From: a virus
Direction: 5' to 3' (one strand)
Length of the DNA stretch: 64,000 nt
Virus record (IMG/VR): IMGVR_UViG_3300026097_000017
Coordinates: 1 to 64,000 of that record
Shown here: positions 13,945 to 63,093 of the stretch, one piece after another
How the letters are laid out: each line of letters opens with the position of its first letter
Numbering within the stretch: position 1 is the stretch's first letter
The notes under the pieces: generated by a model
The model's input: only the letters and a program-made list of their open reading frames with translations
The model's database searches: none
What the model was told of the DNA's origin: nothing
Program-made: the position numbers and the translations under genes

Positions 13945-14200
13945 ATTTTTTAGTCACCTCAAACGTATTGATCGAATCTACTCTGAACGAACGCCAATCT
14001 TTTTTCTCAAGATCATACACTGCAACAGCTTCTTCATTCTTTTTCTTACTGCTCTTTGACTCAGTTTTAGGCAGTAAGTCTTCACGCAATGTGCAAAGCA
14101 TATCTCTTGCTTCACCGTTAGCTTTTGTAAACGAAACTTTCACAACTTCATTCAACAACGTGTTTAAAATGAAATCTCTAGCGACCATAATATTCTCCAT
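13937..14200 (-). CDS. WYL_2/SH3 beta-barrel protein
   Basis: VSFTKANGEARDMLCTL...VYDLEKKDWRSFR. Confidence 0.75.
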   Translation of the reverse strand: MENIMVARDFILNTLLNEVVKVSFTKANGEARDMLCTLREDLLPKTESKSSKKKNEEAVAVYDLEKKDWRSFRVDSINTFEVTKKYG

Positions 14201-14874
14201 CAGTCATTAACAAATTCTTCCATCATAGGGAAGATAGGTTGTAGTACATTAGCACATTCACGTGCCACTAACATATGTTCTTTTTGAGTACCATTACCCG
14301 ACCTCAAATCAATGTAATGCACCCAAGAACGCAAAGTACCATTCATATATAGACGAGACTTAGTGAGTCCTTCAGGCAGGAGTGCTCGAGCCTGTTCTTT
14401 AGCAATACCCATCTTGATTGCTCTACGATATTCACGGGATGCCATCCACTCAACACGACTCTGAATACGATACCAATCGCGTTCCATTTCTCCATCCTCG
14501 ACTGCTATACTATTCTGTCGATTCTTTAAGCACTGCAGACGTGCTTCACGTTTTTCAAACATCTCATCAAAGTCTTGATCAGGATTAGCATATCGCTGAC
14601 TAAACTCTTGAAATGAGAAAGAACGATGGCGAAGAATCTGCCGAGCAATATCCCGTGTCGTTTCAATCTCTAGACAAGCACTGACCATCTCGAGCGGGGA
14701 CCAGTGTCCATGTTTGACCAAGTATCGTATAAGTTTTTCCGATGTCTCAGTGTTAAGCTGGTTCGATGGATTGGAGACACGGGCTGCATACGCGATGAGC
14801 TCTTGGGCGTTATCGATTCCCTGTGCTGCAAGATCTGCAGGTGGCTGAGACCAGGATATAAGTTTAACATTCAT
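14200..14874 (-). CDS. thyX: FAD-dependent thymidylate synthase
   Basis: GHWSPLE, RQILRHRSFSFQEFSQRY, EQARALLP. Confidence 0.95.
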   Translation of the reverse strand: MNVKLISWSQPPADLAAQGIDNAQELIAYAARVSNPSNQLNTETSEKLIRYLVKHGHWSPLEMVSACLEIETTRDIARQILRHRSFSFQEFSQRYANPDQDFDEMFEKREARLQCLKNRQNSIAVEDGEMERDWYRIQSRVEWMASREYRRAIKMGIAKEQARALLPEGLTKSRLYMNGTLRSWVHYIDLRSGNGTQKEHMLVARECANVLQPIFPMMEEFVND

Positions 14875-47043: not shown

Positions 47044-47182
47044 TTTCCTTAGATTCTTTGGACCATGAATAGGTTTCTGTCAAAACTAAAACCGTTCCTG
47101 CTATTAGTAGCCAAACATTATTATAAAAGAAACCTGACAAAAAAGCAAGGTGTCCGATAAAAACACCGAGTCTATGACTCAT
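47030..47182 (-). CDS. small membrane peptide (50 aa) overlapping a promoter
   Basis: Read manually: MSHRLGVFIGHLAFLSGFFYNNVWLLIAGTVLVL...; overlaps both flanking genes. Confidence 0.45.
   Translation of the reverse strand: MSHRLGVFIGHLAFLSGFFYNNVWLLIAGTVLVLTETYSWSKESKENEDV
47120..47148 (-). promoter_or_regulatory. sigma70 promoter TTGCTT-N17-TATAAT for gp40/gp41
   Basis: Consensus boxes. Confidence 0.75.
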
Positions 47183-48224
47183 CTTCAACTACCTCAGGCT
47201 CAACTTCCTCATTACCATAAGTGAACTCAGCTTGAGCAGCTAGATCTAGTTGATGCAGTAAGTCTTCAGTAAAGTATTTTTCAGGATTCTTATAGATCTC
47301 TTTACCAAACACTTTCGTACCATCAGGCATTTCATATCGAGTAGAAACCTTCTTGATGATATCATATTTCTCAGCAAGTTCAAGTAACCCATAATACCGA
47401 TCAAGTCCATTCGCATAAGACAGGCGAACCTCTACCTGACTATTTTCCTTTGTTAAACGCGACTTATGGAGTTTAGCTTTGATGATATTGCCTACGATAT
47501 CTGTACCTTCTTTGTCCTTTTTCTTAGAAAGATAAACGATTGTAGAAGCAGTATATTTTAACCCTGAACCACCAGACATTTCTTTCATAGGAATATACGA
47601 ACCGACCACATCATAAACATGGTTGGTTACAAGCAATGGTACTTGAATCTTAGCCAATGCTAGGTTAAGTACACGGAACGTTGCCTTGAGTACCTGAGAC
47701 TTGGTCATGTCTCTAGTTTCTTTACCGTCTGCAGTATCTTCAATCTCTTTAGTCGAAGATAACTGACCCAGAGAATCTAGCACCATCATCATTGGTTTGC
47801 GTGAATCTTCAGGCTGGTTTTTATACGTCTCGATGATTTTTAGCGCAGTATGACGAAACTTCTGAATTGTATCTGGTTCTGACACCGCAACTCTTGTAGT
47901 ATCAATACCACGCGACTCCATCATTTCTTTAGTGACTGCAGCCTCAGTATCAAAATAAATGACACCCCCTTCAGGATTATCCTTTAGAAACTGTTGCATC
48001 ACGCCAAGAACAAAGAATGTTTTACCAGTCGCTGATTCACCAGCAAATGTTGTAACTTTATTATTAGGAACACCACCATAGATTGTTCCTGACAACGCAG
48101 CATTTAGGATATATGAACCTGTATCAATATACCCACTAAACTCACCAGACGATTTGCCATCTGCTGCAATATTAGTATCTTCATCTTTAATTTGTGTGAC
48201 AATATCACGGAAAAAATCTGACAT
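47172..48224 (-). CDS. uvsX: RecA-like recombinase UvsX
   Basis: AGESATGKT, FDTE, DSLG, TNH, SGGSGLKY, KSR. Confidence 0.95.
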   Translation of the reverse strand: MSDFFRDIVTQIKDEDTNIAADGKSSGEFSGYIDTGSYILNAALSGTIYGGVPNNKVTTFAGESATGKTFFVLGVMQQFLKDNPEGGVIYFDTEAAVTKEMMESRGIDTTRVAVSEPDTIQKFRHTALKIIETYKNQPEDSRKPMMMVLDSLGQLSSTKEIEDTADGKETRDMTKSQVLKATFRVLNLALAKIQVPLLVTNHVYDVVGSYIPMKEMSGGSGLKYTASTIVYLSKKKDKEGTDIVGNIIKAKLHKSRLTKENSQVEVRLSYANGLDRYYGLLELAEKYDIIKKVSTRYEMPDGTKVFGKEIYKNPEKYFTEDLLHQLDLAAQAEFTYGNEEVEPEVVEDES

Positions 48225-49012
48225 TAAAAAAATCCTTCAAGTGTTGCTGTTTCTTCCTGACGACGATCTTTGAGCCGCAGTTCCGCATGCCCTGTAGTTT
48301 CTCTAATATACATCGTACAAAGTTCAGGAAACATTTTGGCGATCCTACTGATTGAGTCATACACATACTCTTTGGTACGCACCTCTTGAAGACCACCTTC
48401 TTCTTTGTAATAATTACTTTTCACAGTATAGTTATCTAATCGGCAAAGCACGTCATTCTTGACATACTGACGGAGACTGTACTCATAGTCCTCACCATGA
48501 TTTGTCACTCTTGCCAAATAATCATCATGCTCTACGATCACACCGAACATCGATGCAATCACATAGCAGAGTTTAGTGTAAACACGATCTTTCATAAAGA
48601 ACGCATTTGAAGCTGCATAGATGCCGAACGTTTTAGCACCAACCTGCTCAGCTTCAGTGAACCCTCTTATTATAATCTCTTTTTCCAAATTGTCAATAGG
48701 TTCCAGCTTTTTATCATTCTTTCTTTGAACTTCTTGAACGTCATCATCAAACATCATCAAATATGTGCCTTCTGGATAATACCGTTCAATCCAGTTTCTT
48801 TGGGCTCCGATTGTAGGAACACCCTTTACAATATTTTGCCCATAAGGATTATCTTTTAGCGCATTTGAATATGTTTCAAACTCTTTATCATCAGCCACAA
48901 ATACAGTGACACGCTCTGGATCAATATTATGGTGTTCAAATACTTTGAACGTCTTTTCTTGAATTGTTTTCGTACGCTTATAGGATGGCACTGCAATTTT
49001 ATAATCAATCAT
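48224..49012 (-). CDS. TET-associated (TAGT/GREB1-like) GT-A glycosyltransferase
   Basis: IAVPSYKR, QRNWI, MFDDD, GEDYE, GGLQ..R; coupled to the TET/JBP gene. Confidence 0.8.
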   Translation of the reverse strand: MIDYKIAVPSYKRTKTIQEKTFKVFEHHNIDPERVTVFVADDKEFETYSNALKDNPYGQNIVKGVPTIGAQRNWIERYYPEGTYLMMFDDDVQEVQRKNDKKLEPIDNLEKEIIIRGFTEAEQVGAKTFGIYAASNAFFMKDRVYTKLCYVIASMFGVIVEHDDYLARVTNHGEDYEYSLRQYVKNDVLCRLDNYTVKSNYYKEEGGLQEVRTKEYVYDSISRIAKMFPELCTMYIRETTGHAELRLKDRRQEETATLEGFF

Positions 49013-50442
49013 TAAAAAAATCCTTCTAGACTCGCTTTTTCTTCAACTGCTTCAGGATGATATTTTGCTAGTGTATCACGTCCACCGTGATGCTCTAGAT
49101 ATTGATACCATTCTTTAGAATCCCACATTCCTGGACTCACACCGTTCCAGTATGGACGCCATAGTACATGGTGCTCATTCAAACGACGATCATCAACAAA
49201 CTGTCTTCGCAGTTTTTCATAATCATAAGAACCAAGCTGTAACATATCCTCGCGGAAATAAAACACCAAAGACATACGGAGGAAATCATCTTCACCTGAA
49301 TCAGGTGCTTCAATCGGAGTGTTCGCATGAATCACTCGCATATTATCAATCAGCAACAAATCCCCTGGACGAACATTGATTGCCGCACGAACTTCAGGAG
49401 CAACCAAATAACCACCTTTCCAACTCTTGCCTTCTTTAGTGACAACAGTCAGATTAGAGTATCCCTCATTCAAAGAACCTGCATCACGATGACTTGCCAT
49501 TCGTGCATTACGATCTTTAGTTGTAGTATTTACAGTAATTGTAGTCAGCGTAGTATCTTCGCCTATCAGGAATTTGTTGTCAATCGAGTCGGCACATTTT
49601 TTCTGCAACGCATAACGTTCAGGGAGCATCCGAGCAAACTCTTTATCAAGTTTCCTAGCAAATGGATAGCACTTTTCAAACTTCTCTAAGTTGTGTTCAG
49701 TGTAAGAAGTTGCTCGCCCATAAGGAATCCGAGGATATCTACCATAATACCCAGCGATACCTGACCAAATGGGAGTCGCATAAGAGGTTGCCGAGATCAT
49801 AGTCTTAGCAATTTTCAAAGCATACTTAGCTGCGTCATCTACTGACATTTCAGCGAGTCGTTTCATCGCCTCATCGAAAAAGCCTGTGTAGTTTTCAAAC
49901 TCGGCTTCTACCTTCGTACGCAACCAAACACCGCCACGTGTTTCATACTTTTCAGTTTTATGACGCTCTACAATTTCTTCTATCGGATCAGAGCCATCGA
50001 TATTTTGAGGTGAGCCATCAATGTAATAATCAAGAATATCTTGTTGAAAAGGTGTCACCCAATCACGATTACCTGACTGCTCTGATCTTGGTCCAGCGGC
50101 AAGTCCTCGGTTATTAGATTCAACTGCTGCATCAAACAATCCTTCATACGCACCTTTCTGTTCTTCTTCGGTGAATACGTTTTTACGGAACTTGAATGCA
50201 ATTTGCTGTTCACCTAGACAACCAATACATTGCCCATTACAATCTGTAGATTTGACTAAATCACAATCAGGTGGAAGATAAAAATCTGCATCATTGTCGA
50301 TTAGAATATCGTAATCATTCTCGTCTACATATTTACCGAGAAGATCTTCTTTGTTGTCAGCGAACAAGGCAATATAAACGTCTTGACCTTCGTCACCTTT
50401 ATACTTCTGCCAAGATCTGCCGCCAATGGTTACTGTTTCCAT
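49012..50442 (-). CDS. TET/JBP-family 2OG-Fe(II) DNA base dioxygenase
   Basis: TTITVN...HRDAG, GGYLV.PE, RPGDLLL, IHANT, RMSLVFYFRE. Confidence 0.85.
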   Translation of the reverse strand: METVTIGGRSWQKYKGDEGQDVYIALFADNKEDLLGKYVDENDYDILIDNDADFYLPPDCDLVKSTDCNGQCIGCLGEQQIAFKFRKNVFTEEEQKGAYEGLFDAAVESNNRGLAAGPRSEQSGNRDWVTPFQQDILDYYIDGSPQNIDGSDPIEEIVERHKTEKYETRGGVWLRTKVEAEFENYTGFFDEAMKRLAEMSVDDAAKYALKIAKTMISATSYATPIWSGIAGYYGRYPRIPYGRATSYTEHNLEKFEKCYPFARKLDKEFARMLPERYALQKKCADSIDNKFLIGEDTTLTTITVNTTTKDRNARMASHRDAGSLNEGYSNLTVVTKEGKSWKGGYLVAPEVRAAINVRPGDLLLIDNMRVIHANTPIEAPDSGEDDFLRMSLVFYFREDMLQLGSYDYEKLRRQFVDDRRLNEHHVLWRPYWNGVSPGMWDSKEWYQYLEHHGGRDTLAKYHPEAVEEKASLEGFF

Positions 50443-50465
50443 ATAAGTTCTCCATGTATGCAATC

Positions 50466-50494
50466 ATTATAACTTATTTACACAAACTTATCAA
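50466..50494 (-). promoter_or_regulatory. sigma70 promoter TTGATA-N17-TATAAT for TET/GT/uvsX
   Basis: Consensus boxes. Confidence 0.7.
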
Positions 50495-51314
50495 GCAGTT
50501 TTTTCTTTTCTACTTTAGGTGGACGTCCACGCTTTTTAGGTTTGTGTTGTTCAATCAACTGTTGAGTTCTCACTTTTTTACGCTGTTCCTTCAGCGATAT
50601 ACTAGCAGCTATCACAAGCAGCACTGCTAATGGATCAAATACAAAAATAATAATCAGAATGACAAATCGTACTGCCTTCTCTAAAACTTGCTGATCAGGA
50701 TTGTCACCAAATATCAATTCTGCAATGAACGCAAGAGGACCGACTTCCGCTTTAAAAGCTGACACTTGAAGCTGAATCTGTGCCAACTCGTCTTGAAGCG
50801 AGATGATCTTATTGGACGCTTGATTGATGGATTCCTGGATTTTCTCACGTTCCTCAGTCTGACTTTCTCTTGCCTCAAGTCCCTTAGAAACTGCCCCAAG
50901 CTCGATATATCTTTGTAATGCATCATCAAGCTGTTCCAGAATGGCTTCATTCCGCTCGATTTCCCGATTCTCTCTCTGAATTCTGGTTTCAATCTGTGTC
51001 GCTTTGATGGTAGACTCATTTAAACCTGCTCCCTGATCAATATGTGCTTTCGATAAAAATCCAAAGATACCCATTGATGTGATAAACATCAACAGCACAA
51101 CTGCACCAGTGAGATAATATTTCAATGCTCTAGGTGCAACTTCCCAGTTTTGATGCAGCCATGCCGCAGTCAAAAGTTTACCTGCTTCCAACACGATACC
51201 CATGATCACAATCGCAGTAAAACTCGCAGCGAATATAGCTGTCAATCCAATGATTGAGTAATACGCAGCTACAGTAGCAATAGCAATCGCTGTAATTAAA
51301 GTTGCTATAACCAT
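50478..51314 (-). CDS. membrane protein (3 TM, coiled coil, 1 TM)
   Basis: AAYYSIIGL...LEAGKL...TSMGIFGFLSKAH...EVGP...VFDPLAV. Confidence 0.75.
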   Translation of the reverse strand: MVIATLITAIAIATVAAYYSIIGLTAIFAASFTAIVIMGIVLEAGKLLTAAWLHQNWEVAPRALKYYLTGAVVLLMFITSMGIFGFLSKAHIDQGAGLNESTIKATQIETRIQRENREIERNEAILEQLDDALQRYIELGAVSKGLEARESQTEEREKIQESINQASNKIISLQDELAQIQLQVSAFKAEVGPLAFIAELIFGDNPDQQVLEKAVRFVILIIIFVFDPLAVLLVIAASISLKEQRKKVRTQQLIEQHKPKKRGRPPKVEKKKLLDKFV

Positions 51315-51616: not shown

Positions 51617-54090
51617 TAGAAAAAGCTCTCCAGTGTACTTTGTTTCTCTACATCCCAACCAATCTTAGAGGTGATCACCTTTAGTGGTTCTAGGAATGAC
51701 TTTTCGAATTGTGTATCATAATCAATATACTTATTTAAGTCAAGCTCTTCTGGCATGTTAGACAGAATAGAGATGACATTTTCACCGATACTATTTGGCG
51801 TTTTCAAATAACAGAATTTAATTTTCTCGCCTTCTTGGATCGGCTGATATTTTTTAGTCAATCCTTTTTTGTCAAGAAGATGATTAAACAGCAACGCACC
51901 TCTAACATGAATCGGTGTTCCTGATGAGTAGATATCTGAAGAATCAGCATACTTTGCTAATCCTTTAACTCCTCTCGGGAAAGCCACATCTTCAAACGGC
52001 ATCTTTTTAAACTTCTCACGGCTATCGGTAACAAACTGATGAAGTAATGATTCGTCGCCCTCCATAATAAGTTGCAGTGCTTCTTTAATCATTTCACGGC
52101 AAGCATATGGAGTTGAAGATTTTACAGCCTCAATACCCATCATCTTGAGTTTCGGTTCATTATACCTCACACCCTCAGAATCATGAACATTCAGAATGTA
52201 TCTTTTCTTAGCAGTCCAGATACCTTTATCAGCAATAACTTCTCGAGCCATCACCATCTTGTTCTGATAGGCTCCCATATAATTCGCAAGCTCTTCATAG
52301 GACTCAGTAATAAATTTCTCAAATCTTTCTTCACAAACAGTATTCAAAAAATCGACTGGACTTTTAGGATTGAACTTTTTGACCAACTCATCCATGCGGA
52401 CATAGATAGAATCAGTATCAATCGCAATCACATAATCTTCATCAGTGCCCAGCAACTTGTTCATGTACTGGTTTACTTTCTTTTCAATCCATCTGATTGA
52501 GAGTTGTCCTGAGATGGTGATTGCTTCTCCGAGTTTGACGTCGAAGAATCTGAAGTATTTGTTTCCGATTGCTCCATAGGCTGAGTTGAGGGAGATTTTT
52601 TTTGCCATCTGGATGTTATGGTATTTAGATATTGAGTTGCGTAGGCGAATCTTCTCCTTCTCATCAGCTGTACCTTTCTTGCTTTCCAGTTCCTTCTGCG
52701 CATTGATCATTTCCTTCTTATAGAAAACACGATCATTGTACATCTTCTGCATCAATTCAGGCAAGAACCCTTGGAAGTCCTTGCGGAAATAGTGACCATT
52801 TGCCGCCAAGCAGTATTCAGTTTCATTAGGATATTGTTCAGTCAAAAGTTTATTAACAGAGGTGTCAATATGTTTGCCTTCTACCAAAGTATCAGGCGAA
52901 ATATTATACTGCATCATTAAGTGAGGATACAGACTATTTAGGTCAAAGGAGACAACCCAGTCGTGCATTCCGACTTGCGGTTCTTTTACATAAGCACCTT
53001 CAATCTGACCATCTTTATCCCGATCCTCCATTTGAGGAACAACAACATTTTTAGAAAGTAGATGGTTATGAATGATTGTGTCCCACATCCGAACCTGTGT
53101 CATCACATCATTTAAATTCACCTTTGCGTCATACGCAAGAGCAAGCGCAAGTTCAATCAGCTTCAGCTTATCGTCTAGTTTCTGAACCAACTCAACGTCT
53201 TTGATGTTGTATTCAATAAACTTCTGATAGTCTTCTTTGTATAACTGGTGAAGAGAGTTGTATTCAGAATAATCAATCTTCTTTTCACCGAGCTCTACGA
53301 AAGCGATATTATCCAACCGATATGATTCTTGCTGAGTATAAGTAAACTTCTTATACATTTCAAGATAATCCAAACTAACGATGCCGCAAAGAACATACGC
53401 ATAGTTCTGCCTGTTCATCAGTCTCACGATGCGCTCTTCAACCTGCCCCCAAGGAGAAAGTTTTTTAGCCATGCGTTCATCAAACTTCTTTTCAATGCGA
53501 CGATACAGATAAGGAATATCAAAGAACTGAGTGTTCCAGCCTGTGATGATATCGACATCCATTTTCTGCCACATATCAAGGAATTTGAGTAACAGATCAT
53601 TCTCATTATTACAACGAATGTAACGGACATCTTCCCTATGCTGCTTGTATTCGCCTATACCGAGAACCCAATAAACTCCTTTAAAGTATATCGTGATTGC
53701 AGTGATCGGCTCAGCAACGTCCGCAGGATCAGGGAAACCAGACTCAGAGCCAACCTCAATATCAATATTGGCGACTCTAATTAAGTTTACATCGTAATCA
53801 ACTTTAGGATATTGTTCATTGATAAAACAATATTCATATTTGTTAGACCCATAGATTTCAAAGTTTTGTATATCACCATATTTGGCAATAAATTCTTTGG
53901 CATCTGAAATGGTGCCTTGTTTGACAGGTTCAACAGGAATACCTTTAACTGTTTTGAAGTTAGAAGGTTTGTTGGTCGGGATGTAGAGTGTTGGTGAGTA
54001 AGGAACACGTTCGTGGAACCGCTTTCCGTTGCGATAACCACGAACGTAGATTTTATCACCTCTACGAAGAAAGTTCGTATAAAATTCCAT
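51616..54090 (-). CDS. gp43: B-family DNA polymerase (T4 gp43)
   Basis: DIEV, FDIPY, SFDLNSLYP, KISLNSAYG, IDTDS, KKRY; no intein or intron. Confidence 0.97.
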   Translation of the reverse strand: MEFYTNFLRRGDKIYVRGYRNGKRFHERVPYSPTLYIPTNKPSNFKTVKGIPVEPVKQGTISDAKEFIAKYGDIQNFEIYGSNKYEYCFINEQYPKVDYDVNLIRVANIDIEVGSESGFPDPADVAEPITAITIYFKGVYWVLGIGEYKQHREDVRYIRCNNENDLLLKFLDMWQKMDVDIITGWNTQFFDIPYLYRRIEKKFDERMAKKLSPWGQVEERIVRLMNRQNYAYVLCGIVSLDYLEMYKKFTYTQQESYRLDNIAFVELGEKKIDYSEYNSLHQLYKEDYQKFIEYNIKDVELVQKLDDKLKLIELALALAYDAKVNLNDVMTQVRMWDTIIHNHLLSKNVVVPQMEDRDKDGQIEGAYVKEPQVGMHDWVVSFDLNSLYPHLMMQYNISPDTLVEGKHIDTSVNKLLTEQYPNETEYCLAANGHYFRKDFQGFLPELMQKMYNDRVFYKKEMINAQKELESKKGTADEKEKIRLRNSISKYHNIQMAKKISLNSAYGAIGNKYFRFFDVKLGEAITISGQLSIRWIEKKVNQYMNKLLGTDEDYVIAIDTDSIYVRMDELVKKFNPKSPVDFLNTVCEERFEKFITESYEELANYMGAYQNKMVMAREVIADKGIWTAKKRYILNVHDSEGVRYNEPKLKMMGIEAVKSSTPYACREMIKEALQLIMEGDESLLHQFVTDSREKFKKMPFEDVAFPRGVKGLAKYADSSDIYSSGTPIHVRGALLFNHLLDKKGLTKKYQPIQEGEKIKFCYLKTPNSIGENVISILSNMPEELDLNKYIDYDTQFEKSFLEPLKVITSKIGWDVEKQSTLESFF

Positions 54091-57742: not shown

Positions 57743-58414
57743 TTAAGAATTATACTGGGAATTAGATTCTAAAGCAATCCAGTATTCTAAATTTGCATCA
57801 ACTGATTTAAAATGCGAGATACCCTTTGAAGAGATCTGTACATTATAATCACCGTTGATCAGTTTGAGGTTTTCAGTTTTAAAGATCATGCGGAACTCAG
57901 CATCAGTTTCACCAACTGTCATGGAGAATGTGTCACTTGAGTCATTCTTAACATCAAGAGCAGTCAACTTGATAGTTTCACCATCACCCACTACAGCGAT
58001 TTCAGGCAAACTCATCACACCACAAGCACGTTGTACTTTCTGCAAAATATCATGACTCAGCTGGAACTGAATCTCTGCCTCAGGGAAGTTGGGACTCTTC
58101 TCTGGTGGCTTAGTGATGATAGATTCATCAGCATAACCATAGCGAGTCTTTTGCCCATTGTTATCTACAATCTCTAGACTAGTGTCATTCACATTCACTT
58201 CTGGCTCTTCGAACAAGTCAAGAACAGAAATGAAACGATTTAGTTCGTAGATACCAAAGTTGCGTTCAAAGTTCTCATCAACCTGCGCTTTGGCTAGAAT
58301 ATTTTTTCTAGGAGAAACTGTTGCCAGCGTATTTCCTTCTTTGAACATCATACTAGAATTAATAGTAGAAAAGTTCTTCAGGATGTTAATTGTATTTTCA
58401 CTAATTTTCATCAT
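57743..58414 (-). CDS. gp45: sliding clamp (gp45)
   Basis: ILKNFSTIN, FGIYEL, YWIALE. Confidence 0.95.
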   Translation of the reverse strand: MMKISENTINILKNFSTINSSMMFKEGNTLATVSPRKNILAKAQVDENFERNFGIYELNRFISVLDLFEEPEVNVNDTSLEIVDNNGQKTRYGYADESIITKPPEKSPNFPEAEIQFQLSHDILQKVQRACGVMSLPEIAVVGDGETIKLTALDVKNDSSDTFSMTVGETDAEFRMIFKTENLKLINGDYNVQISSKGISHFKSVDANLEYWIALESNSQYNS

Positions 58415-61499: not shown

Positions 61500-62542
61500 T
61501 CGAGATCTAGTGCCTCATGGTATAAGTTTATCAATAATCCTTCTAACTTTTTCTGATTAGAAGTTTGCACACCGCTGACATATTTCTTCAAAATAGTCAT
61601 CGTATCTTCAGCTTCATTTACCAAATCATCATCATTGGTCTGATCAATATTCATATGGTCGTCCACCACTGCAACATCATAAACTCCACTACGATATAAC
61701 TTATCAAGGAAAATGTCAAACGCTGTGGGATCTTTTTTTGTTCGGACGATAACTTTCACAAAACACCCTTCATACAAATCGTATTCATGCTTTTGTGGTT
61801 TGCTGTCATCATAAATGATTTTGTAGAATAACCGATGAGGATTACGAACTTCCACCAAGTCTCCTGTATCAGTGTCAAAAATATGAAACCCACGCCAGTC
61901 ATTATAGTCTGACCATGTCATTTCATAAGGAGAGCCAAGATAAGTGAGATTGTCTCGAGACGATTTGTGATGAAAATGACCAGAAAATACTCTGTCGAAT
62001 TTACTGAATACATTAGTTTGTAGTCCATGATGATTTACCGATCCTCTATACATTTCAAACCCTTGCACTTCTAAATGACCAAATGCATACTTAGCATCAG
62101 TCTTGTTCAAAAGCTCAAAAGTTTCTTCTTCATTTTCAGGGCAGATCCAAGGAATCATCATCAATTTAGTATTGTCAATCGTGACTTCCTGTGGATCCAT
62201 TACTAGATTAAAACCATACTCAGATTTAGAATACAGTTCACGCAAAGCATTTACATGTATCGTGTTCTTGTAATATGAGTCATGATTTCCCACAATAAAA
62301 TGCGCTTCGATACCACGTTCATGGATCGGAAGCATCATATCATCTTCTAAATTTCTGGCAGTAACATAATTGATTTGTTTTCTTTTGTCAACTAGATCAC
62401 CAAGATGAATTAAATGTTTAATATTATGCTTGTCAAGATATGGGAAAAAGAACTCATGGTAGAACTTCTTCATATGATTCGCAAACACAATATTATCATT
62501 GCGCACACCAAAGTGTGTATCAGTAATTAAAGCAACTTTCAC
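61496..62542 (-). CDS. gp47: recombination nuclease gp47 (SbcD/Mre11-like)
   Basis: DTHFG, LGD, GNHD, GH, SGHFH. Confidence 0.95.
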   Translation of the reverse strand: MKVALITDTHFGVRNDNIVFANHMKKFYHEFFFPYLDKHNIKHLIHLGDLVDKRKQINYVTARNLEDDMMLPIHERGIEAHFIVGNHDSYYKNTIHVNALRELYSKSEYGFNLVMDPQEVTIDNTKLMMIPWICPENEEETFELLNKTDAKYAFGHLEVQGFEMYRGSVNHHGLQTNVFSKFDRVFSGHFHHKSSRDNLTYLGSPYEMTWSDYNDWRGFHIFDTDTGDLVEVRNPHRLFYKIIYDDSKPQKHEYDLYEGCFVKVIVRTKKDPTAFDIFLDKLYRSGVYDVAVVDDHMNIDQTNDDDLVNEAEDTMTILKKYVSGVQTSNQKKLEGLLINLYHEALDLE

Positions 62543-63093
62543 TCTGCGTCATCCTCGATGAAGTTTTCTATTCCTACTTTCTTTTTCGCCTTTTTACGCT
62601 TTTCAAGATTAGACTCAAATGTTACCATAAAGTCATCCATATATTCCTGAGCATAATCATTATGAAATGGGCGATTCATTTCTGGAGTTGCTTCTTCAGC
62701 CTGAACCATCTCCATAATTGTAATATTCTTAGTGGAACTGTATTTGACGTAGAGCTGTTTCTTTTCTTTTTGAATCCTGCGTAAAAATGCATAATAGATT
62801 ATCTGCGTGAAATACGCAAAAGGATTACTACTTTTGTCAGGATTAAAATTATTGATGTATTGAACACAGTTCTCCACACCATCAGAGATCATATCTTCTC
62901 TAAATTGATAGCTTATGAAGTTTGGCTTGGTGGATAATCTTCGAGCGATCATCAAAAAACATTCACCCACATAATTGGGAATGATTGGTTTTTCCTTGCC
63001 TTCTTTTTCAGCCTGTTTTACTTTTTCTCGATACTCGATGAGTGAGTTGAGAAACTCTTTGTTGTTGATATAATGAGTTGATTTTCGTGCCAC
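62539..63093 (-). CDS. gp55: late-transcription sigma factor gp55
   Basis: HYINNK, DMISDG.ENC, NPFAYFTQI.YYAFLRRIQKEKKQ. Confidence 0.95.
   Translation of the reverse strand: MARKSTHYINNKEFLNSLIEYREKVKQAEKEGKEKPIIPNYVGECFLMIARRLSTKPNFISYQFREDMISDGVENCVQYINNFNPDKSSNPFAYFTQIIYYAFLRRIQKEKKQLYVKYSSTKNITIMEMVQAEEATPEMNRPFHNDYAQEYMDDFMVTFESNLEKRKKAKKKVGIENFIEDDAE

Follow-up and report, generated by a model that had tools for sequence, protein, structure and literature searches.

We analysed a 64-kb window (positions 1 to 64,000 of the viral record IMGVR_UViG_3300026097_000017) of an 80-kb viral contig with an estimated completeness of 44%, in which two adjacent genes encode a TET/JBP-family dioxygenase dependent on 2-oxoglutarate (2OG) and Fe(II) and a TAGT-family glycosyltransferase (Table 1). 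On Pfam and PHROG profiles, the window comes from a T4-like phage: it encodes gp55, gp47, gp46, the sliding clamp, the clamp loader, RegA, a DNA polymerase, UvsX and a gp41-like helicase. A megablast search of the region against cultured phages gave no near relative. A preliminary description of this stretch had read the two genes as a candidate module for base J-like DNA hypermodification, and the gene families and the gene arrangement on which that reading was built were all recovered here. In addition, both enzymes were found to end in nearly the same short peptide as the DNA polymerase of the phage, and the pair is probably a module made of a long-form phage thymine dioxygenase and a DNA glycosyltransferase that are tethered to the sliding clamp.

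A dioxygenase and a glycosyltransferase gene coupled to uvsX

All the genes around the dioxygenase gene are on the minus strand. As described earlier, the pair lies between the genes for gp43 and UvsX, with two unannotated open reading frames (ORFs) of 278 and 114 amino acids (aa) separating it from the polymerase gene, and the analogy drawn with T4 also held, the gp43-uvsX interval of the T4 record consisting of imm, gene 42, beta-gt and segA. The TAATG coupling that had been noticed is a one-base overlap between the stop codon of the dioxygenase gene and the start codon of the glycosyltransferase gene at 49012, and because the same one-base TAATG overlap is also found at the glycosyltransferase-uvsX junction at 48224, the dioxygenase, the glycosyltransferase and UvsX are encoded by a single coupled string of genes. 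The ORF of the dioxygenase spans 49012..50463 (minus strand), and translation from a conserved ATG at 50442, with a GGAG about 7 nt 5' of it, gives a protein of 476 aa.

The pair had also been credited with its own sigma-70 promoter, and a TTGATA-17-TATAAT site with 11/12 matches was indeed found upstream of it, as a pattern match only. Since promoter-like sites were not more numerous across the region (28) than in shuffled sequences (24 +/- 4.6), only the quality and the position of this site carry weight. A perfect TTGACA-16-TATAAT site (12/12) is present inside the glycosyltransferase gene (48669-48696, minus strand), about 445 nt 5' of the uvsX start, and might be a separate start for uvsX transcripts; the terminator-like hairpin that follows uvsX is a possible end of the transcription unit. 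The 278-aa ORF upstream of the pair (50478-51314, minus strand) sits roughly in the T4 imm slot and had no family match; four hydrophobic segments are predicted in its product, which has a coiled coil in the middle and whose basic C-terminus finishes with KKKLLDKFV. We did not count this membrane/coiled-coil protein as a member of the module, its LLDKFV ending being only loosely similar to the C-terminal tails described below.

Table 1. Positions of the genes and sequence elements discussed in the text, in window coordinates.
Feature	Position	Strand	Basis or remark
TET/JBP-family (5mYOX) 2OG/Fe(II) dioxygenase, 476 aa	49012..50442	-	Pfam Tet_JBP, AlphaFold2 model, family profile
Catalytic double-stranded beta-helix core of the dioxygenase, residues 242-398	49249..49719	-	H318-x-D320, H372, R389, S391
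Dioxygenase tail S-L-E-G-F-F, residues 471-476	49015..49032	-	putative gp45 clamp-binding peptide
TAGT-family (GT-A type) DNA glycosyltransferase, 262 aa	48224..49012	-	coupled on both sides
D89-D90-D91 of the glycosyltransferase, metal/nucleotide-sugar motif	48740..48748	-	invariant in ortholog alignment
Glycosyltransferase tail T-L-E-G-F-F, residues 257-262	48227..48244	-	putative clamp-binding peptide
UvsX-like recombinase, third gene of the coupled string	47172..48224	-	profile matches
Promoter-like site, sigma-70 type	50466..50494	-	TTGATA-17-TATAAT; overlaps the end of the preceding 278-aa ORF
Terminator-like hairpin and T-run 3' of uvsX	47149..47167	-	pattern match only
Family-B DNA polymerase, gp43 homologue, 824 aa	51616..54090	-	Pfam and PHROG
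Polymerase tail T-L-E-S-F-F	51619..51636	-	reference clamp-binding peptide of the phage (putative)
gp45-type sliding clamp, proposed docking partner	57743..58414	-	PHROG 223, E 3.9e-78
gp55-type late sigma factor, C-terminus ...GIENFIEDDAE (hydrophobic/acidic)	62539..63093	-	profile match
ThyX thymidylate synthase	14200..14874	-	PF02511, 143.9 bits

The dioxygenase matches Pfam Tet_JBP (PF12851) with 53.6 bits against a cut-off of 34.9, over residues 242-398, and the HRD...H...R.S signature first seen in its sequence corresponds to H318-R319-D320, H372 and R389-x-S391. No variation was seen at H318, D320, H372, R389 or S391 among 21 orthologs (46-73% identity); in an alignment of 117 diverse homologues, H318, D320 and H372 are still invariant and R389 is kept in at least 90% of the sequences. 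An AlphaFold2 model built from the 117-sequence alignment reached a predicted local distance difference test score (pLDDT) of 94.6 and a predicted TM-score of 0.90, and replaced a model built from the 21 close orthologs, which was dropped for its poor catalytic core (pLDDT 67). Foldseek comparisons of the retained model gave CcTet, NgTET1, human TET2 and CMD1 as the best solved folds (E 5e-9 to 3e-7, probability 1.0), with FTO well behind these four; the extra domains of the long-form dioxygenase keep the TM-scores modest (0.3-0.5). The family profile also matches TET2 by sequence (8.5e-8), and TauD and clavaminate synthase appeared as weak side matches. Since the top folds are all DNA-base dioxygenases, the best match is not to a 2OG oxygenase of the non-DNA type.

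A deep profile search through 1.84 billion representative sequences returned 1719 relatives at E <= 1e-3, among which the long form (430-480 aa) makes up about two dozen clusters at 50% identity; most of the others are about 300 aa long and match only an N-terminal NRG-AAG segment and the core. In addition, the long form is extended at the N-terminus, has a far larger insertion separating the NRG-AAG motif from the core, at a place where a 'variable insertion' domain has been described (PMC13229309), and carries a helical extension at the C-terminus. Searching the ESM Atlas with residues 1-240 gave only sub-threshold Tet_JBP leads, and a search of NCBIfam gave nothing useful. The Pfam scan of the dioxygenase found no J-DNA-binding or SNF2 domain (only Tet_JBP and the weak TauD match), and the label 'SNF2 DNA repair protein' that some relatives carry in GenBank is unfounded, because no SNF2 domain backs it. 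A C-terminus made of a basic stretch and then G-D-P-L-Y, or a sequence close to it, is seen in many of the relatives of about 300 aa and may be another partner-binding tail, possibly the C-terminal extension that has been tied to ParB-dependent enzymes (PMC13229309).

The second protein of the pair had been called TAGT-like, and it matches Pfam TAGT (PF20691) over the entire model (positions 1-205 of 205) with 61.9 bits against a cut-off of 27.5; it is also matched by PHROG 842 (beta-glucosyl-hydroxymethylcytosine alpha-glucosyltransferase). An arginine (in GAQRN), the three aspartates D89-D91 and an E-D-Y motif (in NHGEDYEY) are present, and R...DDD...EDY/F are the active-site motifs of the GT-A enzymes that modify phage DNA (bioRxiv 10.1101/2023.12.21.572611). 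A sequence search of the PDB found no solved relative. The glycosyltransferase is a predicted GT-A type DNA enzyme.

One may ask whether such a pair acts on DNA at all, given how versatile 2OG oxygenases and GT-A enzymes are: a hydroxylase of RNA or protein could work with a glycosyltransferase whose substrate is a protein or the cell envelope, many non-DNA 2OG oxygenases are found in T4-like cyanophages, and the side matches to TauD and clavaminate synthase would suit such a role. We regard this as highly improbable, considering that the Tet_JBP match is above its cut-off, that all the top folds act on DNA bases, that the two genes lie within a cluster of replication and recombination genes, and that the TAGT family is defined by its link to TET enzymes and includes the beta-glucosyl-hydroxymethylcytosine alpha-glucosyltransferase of T-even phages (bioRxiv 10.64898/2025.12.06.692756).

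Thymine or 5-methylcytosine as the candidate substrate

The preliminary description had noted that neither a C5-cytosine methyltransferase nor a dCMP hydroxymethylase was visible in the window and that thyX was present, and all three statements proved correct. C5-methyltransferases (PF00145) and ThyA-family proteins (PF00303) are absent from the whole 80-kb contig, and a wider scan for PF00145 covered 45 contigs with orthologs and the full genomes of the cultured relatives C48C1, DLP6 and Cr30 without a hit; the dioxygenases of these three are 66%, 51% and 40% identical to that of the window, respectively. A ThyA-family hydroxymethylase is equally missing from C48C1 and DLP6; Cr30 has one ThyA-family gene. 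ThyX would supply dTMP, and hence thymine in the phage DNA.

We then compared the gene contexts of orthologs (44-74% identical) by clustering the flanking ORFs of 48 loci and scanning representatives against Pfam. The commonest neighbour of the dioxygenase is an amino acid:DNA transferase (PF18724), found in 28 loci and usually adjacent, followed by a GATase (26 loci), P-loop nucleotide kinase 3 (PF18751; 23 loci) and a GNAT-like protein (21 loci). The kit formed by the P-loop kinase, the amino acid:DNA transferase and the GATase is known from thymidine hypermodifications derived from 5-hydroxymethyluracil (5hmU) (PMC5889632, PMC8989533), and the same kit adjoins thymine-oxidising 5mYOX enzymes (PMC13229309). 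Other ortholog cassettes contain a TAGT protein, a GT-B glycosyltransferase (GT1), an epimerase with a UDP-galactopyranose mutase (Glf), or sugar-1-phosphate nucleotidyltransferases. The order in DLP6 is TAGT, a nucleotidyltransferase/kinase fusion (a sugar-activating enzyme) and then the dioxygenase, and Cr30 has the dioxygenase together with an amino acid:DNA transferase and a TAGT-like gene. The DNA of DLP6 is listed as resistant to restriction enzymes (PMC8228603), a trait to which other modification systems may contribute, and the panel used comprised 18 enzymes (PMC5349666). Taken together, the absence of a methyltransferase, the ortholog kit and the DLP6 context point to thymine in DNA as the probable substrate class of the dioxygenase, and make thymine likelier than 5-methylcytosine (5mC) and glycosyl-5hmU the likelier product in the window.

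These cassettes have further features. In C48C1 (L001:8416-10448) and in L010:10263-13103, the dioxygenase gene is followed by genes for an unannotated protein of 344-349 aa and a UDP-galactopyranose mutase, and in L010 only, a NAD-dependent epimerase gene is also found 3' of the dioxygenase gene; this arrangement hints at a DNA modification that would contain galactofuranose. The 344-349-aa protein does not carry the C-terminal tail described in the next section. The cassettes of the L013:6200-7600 region, of L018:4319-5698 and of L010 encode a 455-462-aa protein with a weak match to GmrSD_N (DUF262, ParB-like), with an AAA_5 ATPase and a protein of about 720-740 aa as neighbours; the set may represent a nuclease that depends on modification, or some other accessory system.

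If the dioxygenase instead oxidised 5mC made by a methyltransferase of the host or of the unsequenced part of the phage genome, the product would be a glycosylated 5-hydroxymethylcytosine (5hmC). This is how the characterised phage enzymes of clades A and B work, which are 5mC dioxygenases with GT-A partners that glycosylate 5hmC (PMC8256090; bioRxiv 10.1101/2023.12.21.572611); the closest solved folds are 5mC enzymes as well, and some thymine dioxygenases also act on 5mC (PMC13229309). That the contig is only about 44% complete leaves room for an unlinked methyltransferase in this phage. In the published pathways, however, the methyltransferase gene is immediately adjacent (PMC8256090), and none was found in the ortholog contigs or in the three complete relatives. 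Moreover, the orthologs accompany a kit that acts on 5hmU, and host methylation at a few sites would bring little protection. We consequently find oxidation of 5mC quite improbable. Two other points weigh against thymine, together with the incompleteness of the contig: the dioxygenase, with its 476 aa, is much longer than the characterised phage thymine dioxygenases (about 290-300 aa), and some clade C1 and D enzymes lacking ParB were inactive on both thymine and 5mC in E. coli (PMC8256090, PMC13229309).

One subclass of the phage thymine dioxygenases depends on activation by ParB-like proteins. The sole ParB_N gene of the contig (2938-3387, minus strand; 149 aa, 31.8 bits) is about 45 kb away from the dioxygenase gene, and its link to the dioxygenase is doubtful because C48C1, DLP6 and Cr30 have no ParB_N gene. 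With no ParB near the locus or in the complete relatives, we rejected a ParB dependence of the dioxygenase on the basis of context.

A polymerase-like C-terminal tail on both enzymes

Listing the C-termini of all ORFs showed that the polymerase ends in ...EKQSTLESFF, the dioxygenase in ...EEKASLEGFF and the glycosyltransferase in ...EETATLEGFF, and these three are the only proteins with such a tail among the 117 ORFs of the 80-kb contig. L472 and F475 are invariant in the 21 dioxygenase orthologs; glycosyltransferase orthologs end in SLENFFA or SLTAFF, and the TAGT protein of DLP6 ends in DLSSFFN. In Cr30, the polymerase has a deviant ending (...DLSSLFD), and the same L-F ending is found on its TAGT-like protein (...DLSKLF) and on its dioxygenase (...ATLF). 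In T4 and RB69, gp43, gp55 and gp33 bind the gp45 clamp through epitopes formed by their hydrophobic/acidic C-termini; these epitopes are interchangeable between proteins, and one of them was co-crystallised with the clamp (PMC2988020). T4 gp43 ends in EEKASLDFLFG and T4 gp55 in SPSLDFLYEAND, and the polymerase of the window aligns colinearly with the RB69 polymerase up to the C-terminus of the latter (...EKKASLFD).

We next tallied the distinct proteins that bear the motif over the 48 loci. The tail is carried by 33 of the 34 dioxygenases and by 7 of the 8 DNA polymerases, and is likewise frequent in amino acid:DNA transferases (20/23), GNAT-like proteins (17/18), GT-B glycosyltransferases (3/3) and HNH endonucleases (3/3); the single methyltransferase-like protein has it (1/1), as do 3/5 TAGT proteins, or 5/5 under a looser pattern. 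It is absent from the GATases (0/22), from the sugar-nucleotide enzymes, from gp41, gp44, gp45, gp46, gp47, UvsX and the peptide deformylase (0 in each), and from the second-type 2OG oxygenases of these loci (2OG-FeII_Oxy_5; 0/3), which is a further argument against a role of the pair outside DNA. Among all other ORFs, 9/471 bear the motif; these nine represent six distinct proteins, including four gp55 homologues and one truncated copy of a GNAT-like protein. The shorter dioxygenase relatives (about 300 aa), which belong to other phage types, do not have the tail. The motif occurs on six or more unrelated folds, which rules out common descent as its explanation.

Concerning individual families, the tailed HNH endonucleases (159-162 aa) are encoded inside the cassettes (L031:8887-9375, L033:4451-4939, L049:6544-7023) and end in STLEEFLA. 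The tail-less GATase_6 proteins of the cassettes, encoded beside the dioxygenase (L016-L049, for example L049:2336-3007), have in common another, conserved ending (...EDLQC, ...NDLQ, ...IQDQQP).

The likeness to known clamp-binding epitopes suggests that the tailed enzymes dock on gp45 on freshly replicated DNA, so that hypermodification would be clamp-tethered and coupled to replication. Still, the module might modify DNA while its tail has another origin, as a by-product of translational coupling or as a handle for a replisome protein, a chaperone or a protease. The E-G codons of the tail (GAAGGA) are a possible ribosome-binding site for the coupled downstream gene, being located 9 nt 5' of the next ATG at both junctions, and most of the ortholog genes overlap the next gene by 1 or 4 bases. 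The invariant residues are nevertheless a leucine and two aromatic residues, which a ribosome-binding site does not need. In addition, the Leu, Glu and Phe codons of the tail vary synonymously, and the tail is kept even at distances of 67 or 903 nt from the next gene; these two observations argue for selection on the peptide, and led us to reject a mere ribosome-binding or coupling artefact as the sole cause. That the polymerase ends in the same peptide, homologous to the RB69/T4 clamp-binding epitope (PMC2988020), that gp55 homologues account for 4/6 of the distinct other carriers, and that the motif recurs on unrelated folds all favour the clamp over another partner. We therefore think it unlikely that the tail is something other than a clamp handle.

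Docking on the clamp must also be weighed against several other observations. The P-loop kinases, which act on DNA as well, mostly lack the tail (1/17), so that it is not a universal mark of DNA-acting enzymes. The alpha- and beta-glucosyltransferases of T4 have no such tail either, and they showed no gp45 binding in pull-downs (bioRxiv 10.64898/2025.12.06.692756), in a study in which both proteins were C-terminally tagged. No description of a clamp-binding tail on a phage DNA-modifying enzyme came up in our literature search, and clamps are discussed in PMC13229309 only in connection with ParB.

Weighing all this, we hold it moderately probable that thymine oxidation, glycosylation and clamp tethering operate together here, in a two-enzyme module for the post-replicative hypermodification of DNA in a T4-like phage. 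The dioxygenase would convert thymine in phage DNA to 5hmU by hydroxylating its 5-methyl group, and the TAGT-family enzyme would then move a sugar from a host nucleotide-sugar onto the hydroxyl of 5hmU. The resulting base J-like glycosyl-5hmU would shield the DNA from host nucleases. The [ST]-L-E-G-F-F-COOH tails would recruit both enzymes to clamps on new DNA and, in this way, couple the modification to replication.

More tentatively, and with doubts exceeding our confidence, we propose that the gp45 clamp may be a platform, perhaps even a required activator, for an interchangeable toolbox of tailed post-replicative hypermodifying enzymes, whose members would be the thymine dioxygenase, GT-A and GT-B glycosyltransferases, the amino acid:DNA transferase and the GNAT-type protein, each with a polymerase-like tail. 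If that was true, the gp45 clamp would take the part that a ParB-like clamp plays for the ParB-dependent thymine dioxygenases, and the inactivity of ParB-less relatives expressed alone in E. coli would be explained.

Significance and comparison with known systems

The rationale for pathways of this kind has been termed a mystery (PMC13229309), and a clamp tail would offer a concrete mechanism by which post-replicative hypermodification could keep up with replication. It would also revive, in a cleaner system, the disputed idea that the T4 glucosyltransferases ride on gp45. More practically, the tail may be a simple sequence mark for likely DNA-acting enzymes in variable modification cassettes, and the cultured phages DLP6, Cr30 and C48C1 lend themselves to experiments on the chemistry as well as on the tethering.

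The pathway type itself is already known from work published between 2021 and 2026 (a phage TET-like oxidase with a glycosyltransferase, probably acting on thymine), and the locus adds a T4-like long-form member to it. The interpretation first given to the window was thus right about the families and the position shared with T4, and implied more novelty than is warranted, as TET-linked GT-A pathways lacking a methyltransferase, with predicted 5hmU derivatives, had been published.

The nearest systems are the phage thymine dioxygenases (5mYOX clades C1 and C2, O'Toole et al. 2026, PMC13229309; TET89, Burke et al. 2021, PMC8256090), which share the Tet_JBP core (HxD...H...R) with the enzyme of the window, have no adjacent C5-methyltransferase, as here, and are likewise inferred to act after replication. 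The glycosyltransferase next to the dioxygenase in the window is a clade C2-like neighbour, and the GATase, P-loop kinase and amino acid:DNA transferase found next to its orthologs are clade C1-like. Unlike these enzymes of about 290-300 aa, the dioxygenase described here has three extra segments; unlike the ParB-dependent 5mYOX subclass, it has no ParB partner in its neighbourhood or in the complete relatives; and, in contrast to its relatives of about 300 aa, it carries a polymerase-like clamp tail.

In the phage pathways that combine a TET enzyme, a C5-methyltransferase and a glycosyltransferase (PMC8256090; bioRxiv 10.1101/2023.12.21.572611), a TET-type oxidase is followed by a GT-A enzyme with R...DDD...EDY, and both belong to the same Pfam families as the two proteins of the window. 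The module differs from them by the lack of a methyltransferase, by its setting in a T4-like replisome and by the putative clamp tails on both enzymes; that methyltransferase-less versions make 5hmU or its derivatives was already suggested by those authors (PMC8256090; bioRxiv 10.1101/2023.12.21.572611; PMC13229309).

The two-step chemistry that we propose, from thymine to 5hmU and then to its glycosylated form, is that of base J in kinetoplastids (JBP1/JBP2 and JGT), where JGT is a structural homologue of the phage GT-A enzymes (bioRxiv 10.1101/2023.12.21.572611). 'Base J-like', the term used in the preliminary description, is consequently apt for the mode of action and not for membership, as the extra domains of the JBP proteins, for J binding in JBP1 and SNF2 in JBP2, are absent here; besides, the modification would here probably protect the entire genome and not serve as an epigenetic mark.

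The glucosylation of hydroxymethylcytosine in T4 (gene 42, alpha-gt and beta-gt) has genes in the same gp43-uvsX slot and the same type of end result as proposed here, a glycosylated hydroxymethylpyrimidine, and PF20691 includes a secondary glucosyltransferase of T-even phages. In T4, however, it is cytosine that is hydroxymethylated, and this happens on nucleotides, ahead of replication, whereas the module would act after replication and on thymine, and the T4 glucosyltransferases belong to a different fold family and have no clamp tail. A further likeness to T4 and RB69 lies in the C-terminal epitopes of gp43, gp55 and gp33, each a hydrophobic/acidic peptide placed, as here, at the extreme C-terminus after a variable linker, with EEKASLDFLFG in T4 gp43 to be compared with EEKASLEGFF in the dioxygenase. 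What sets the locus apart is that such peptides are found on DNA-modifying enzymes, and this clamp tail on the dioxygenase and the glycosyltransferase looks like a new feature.

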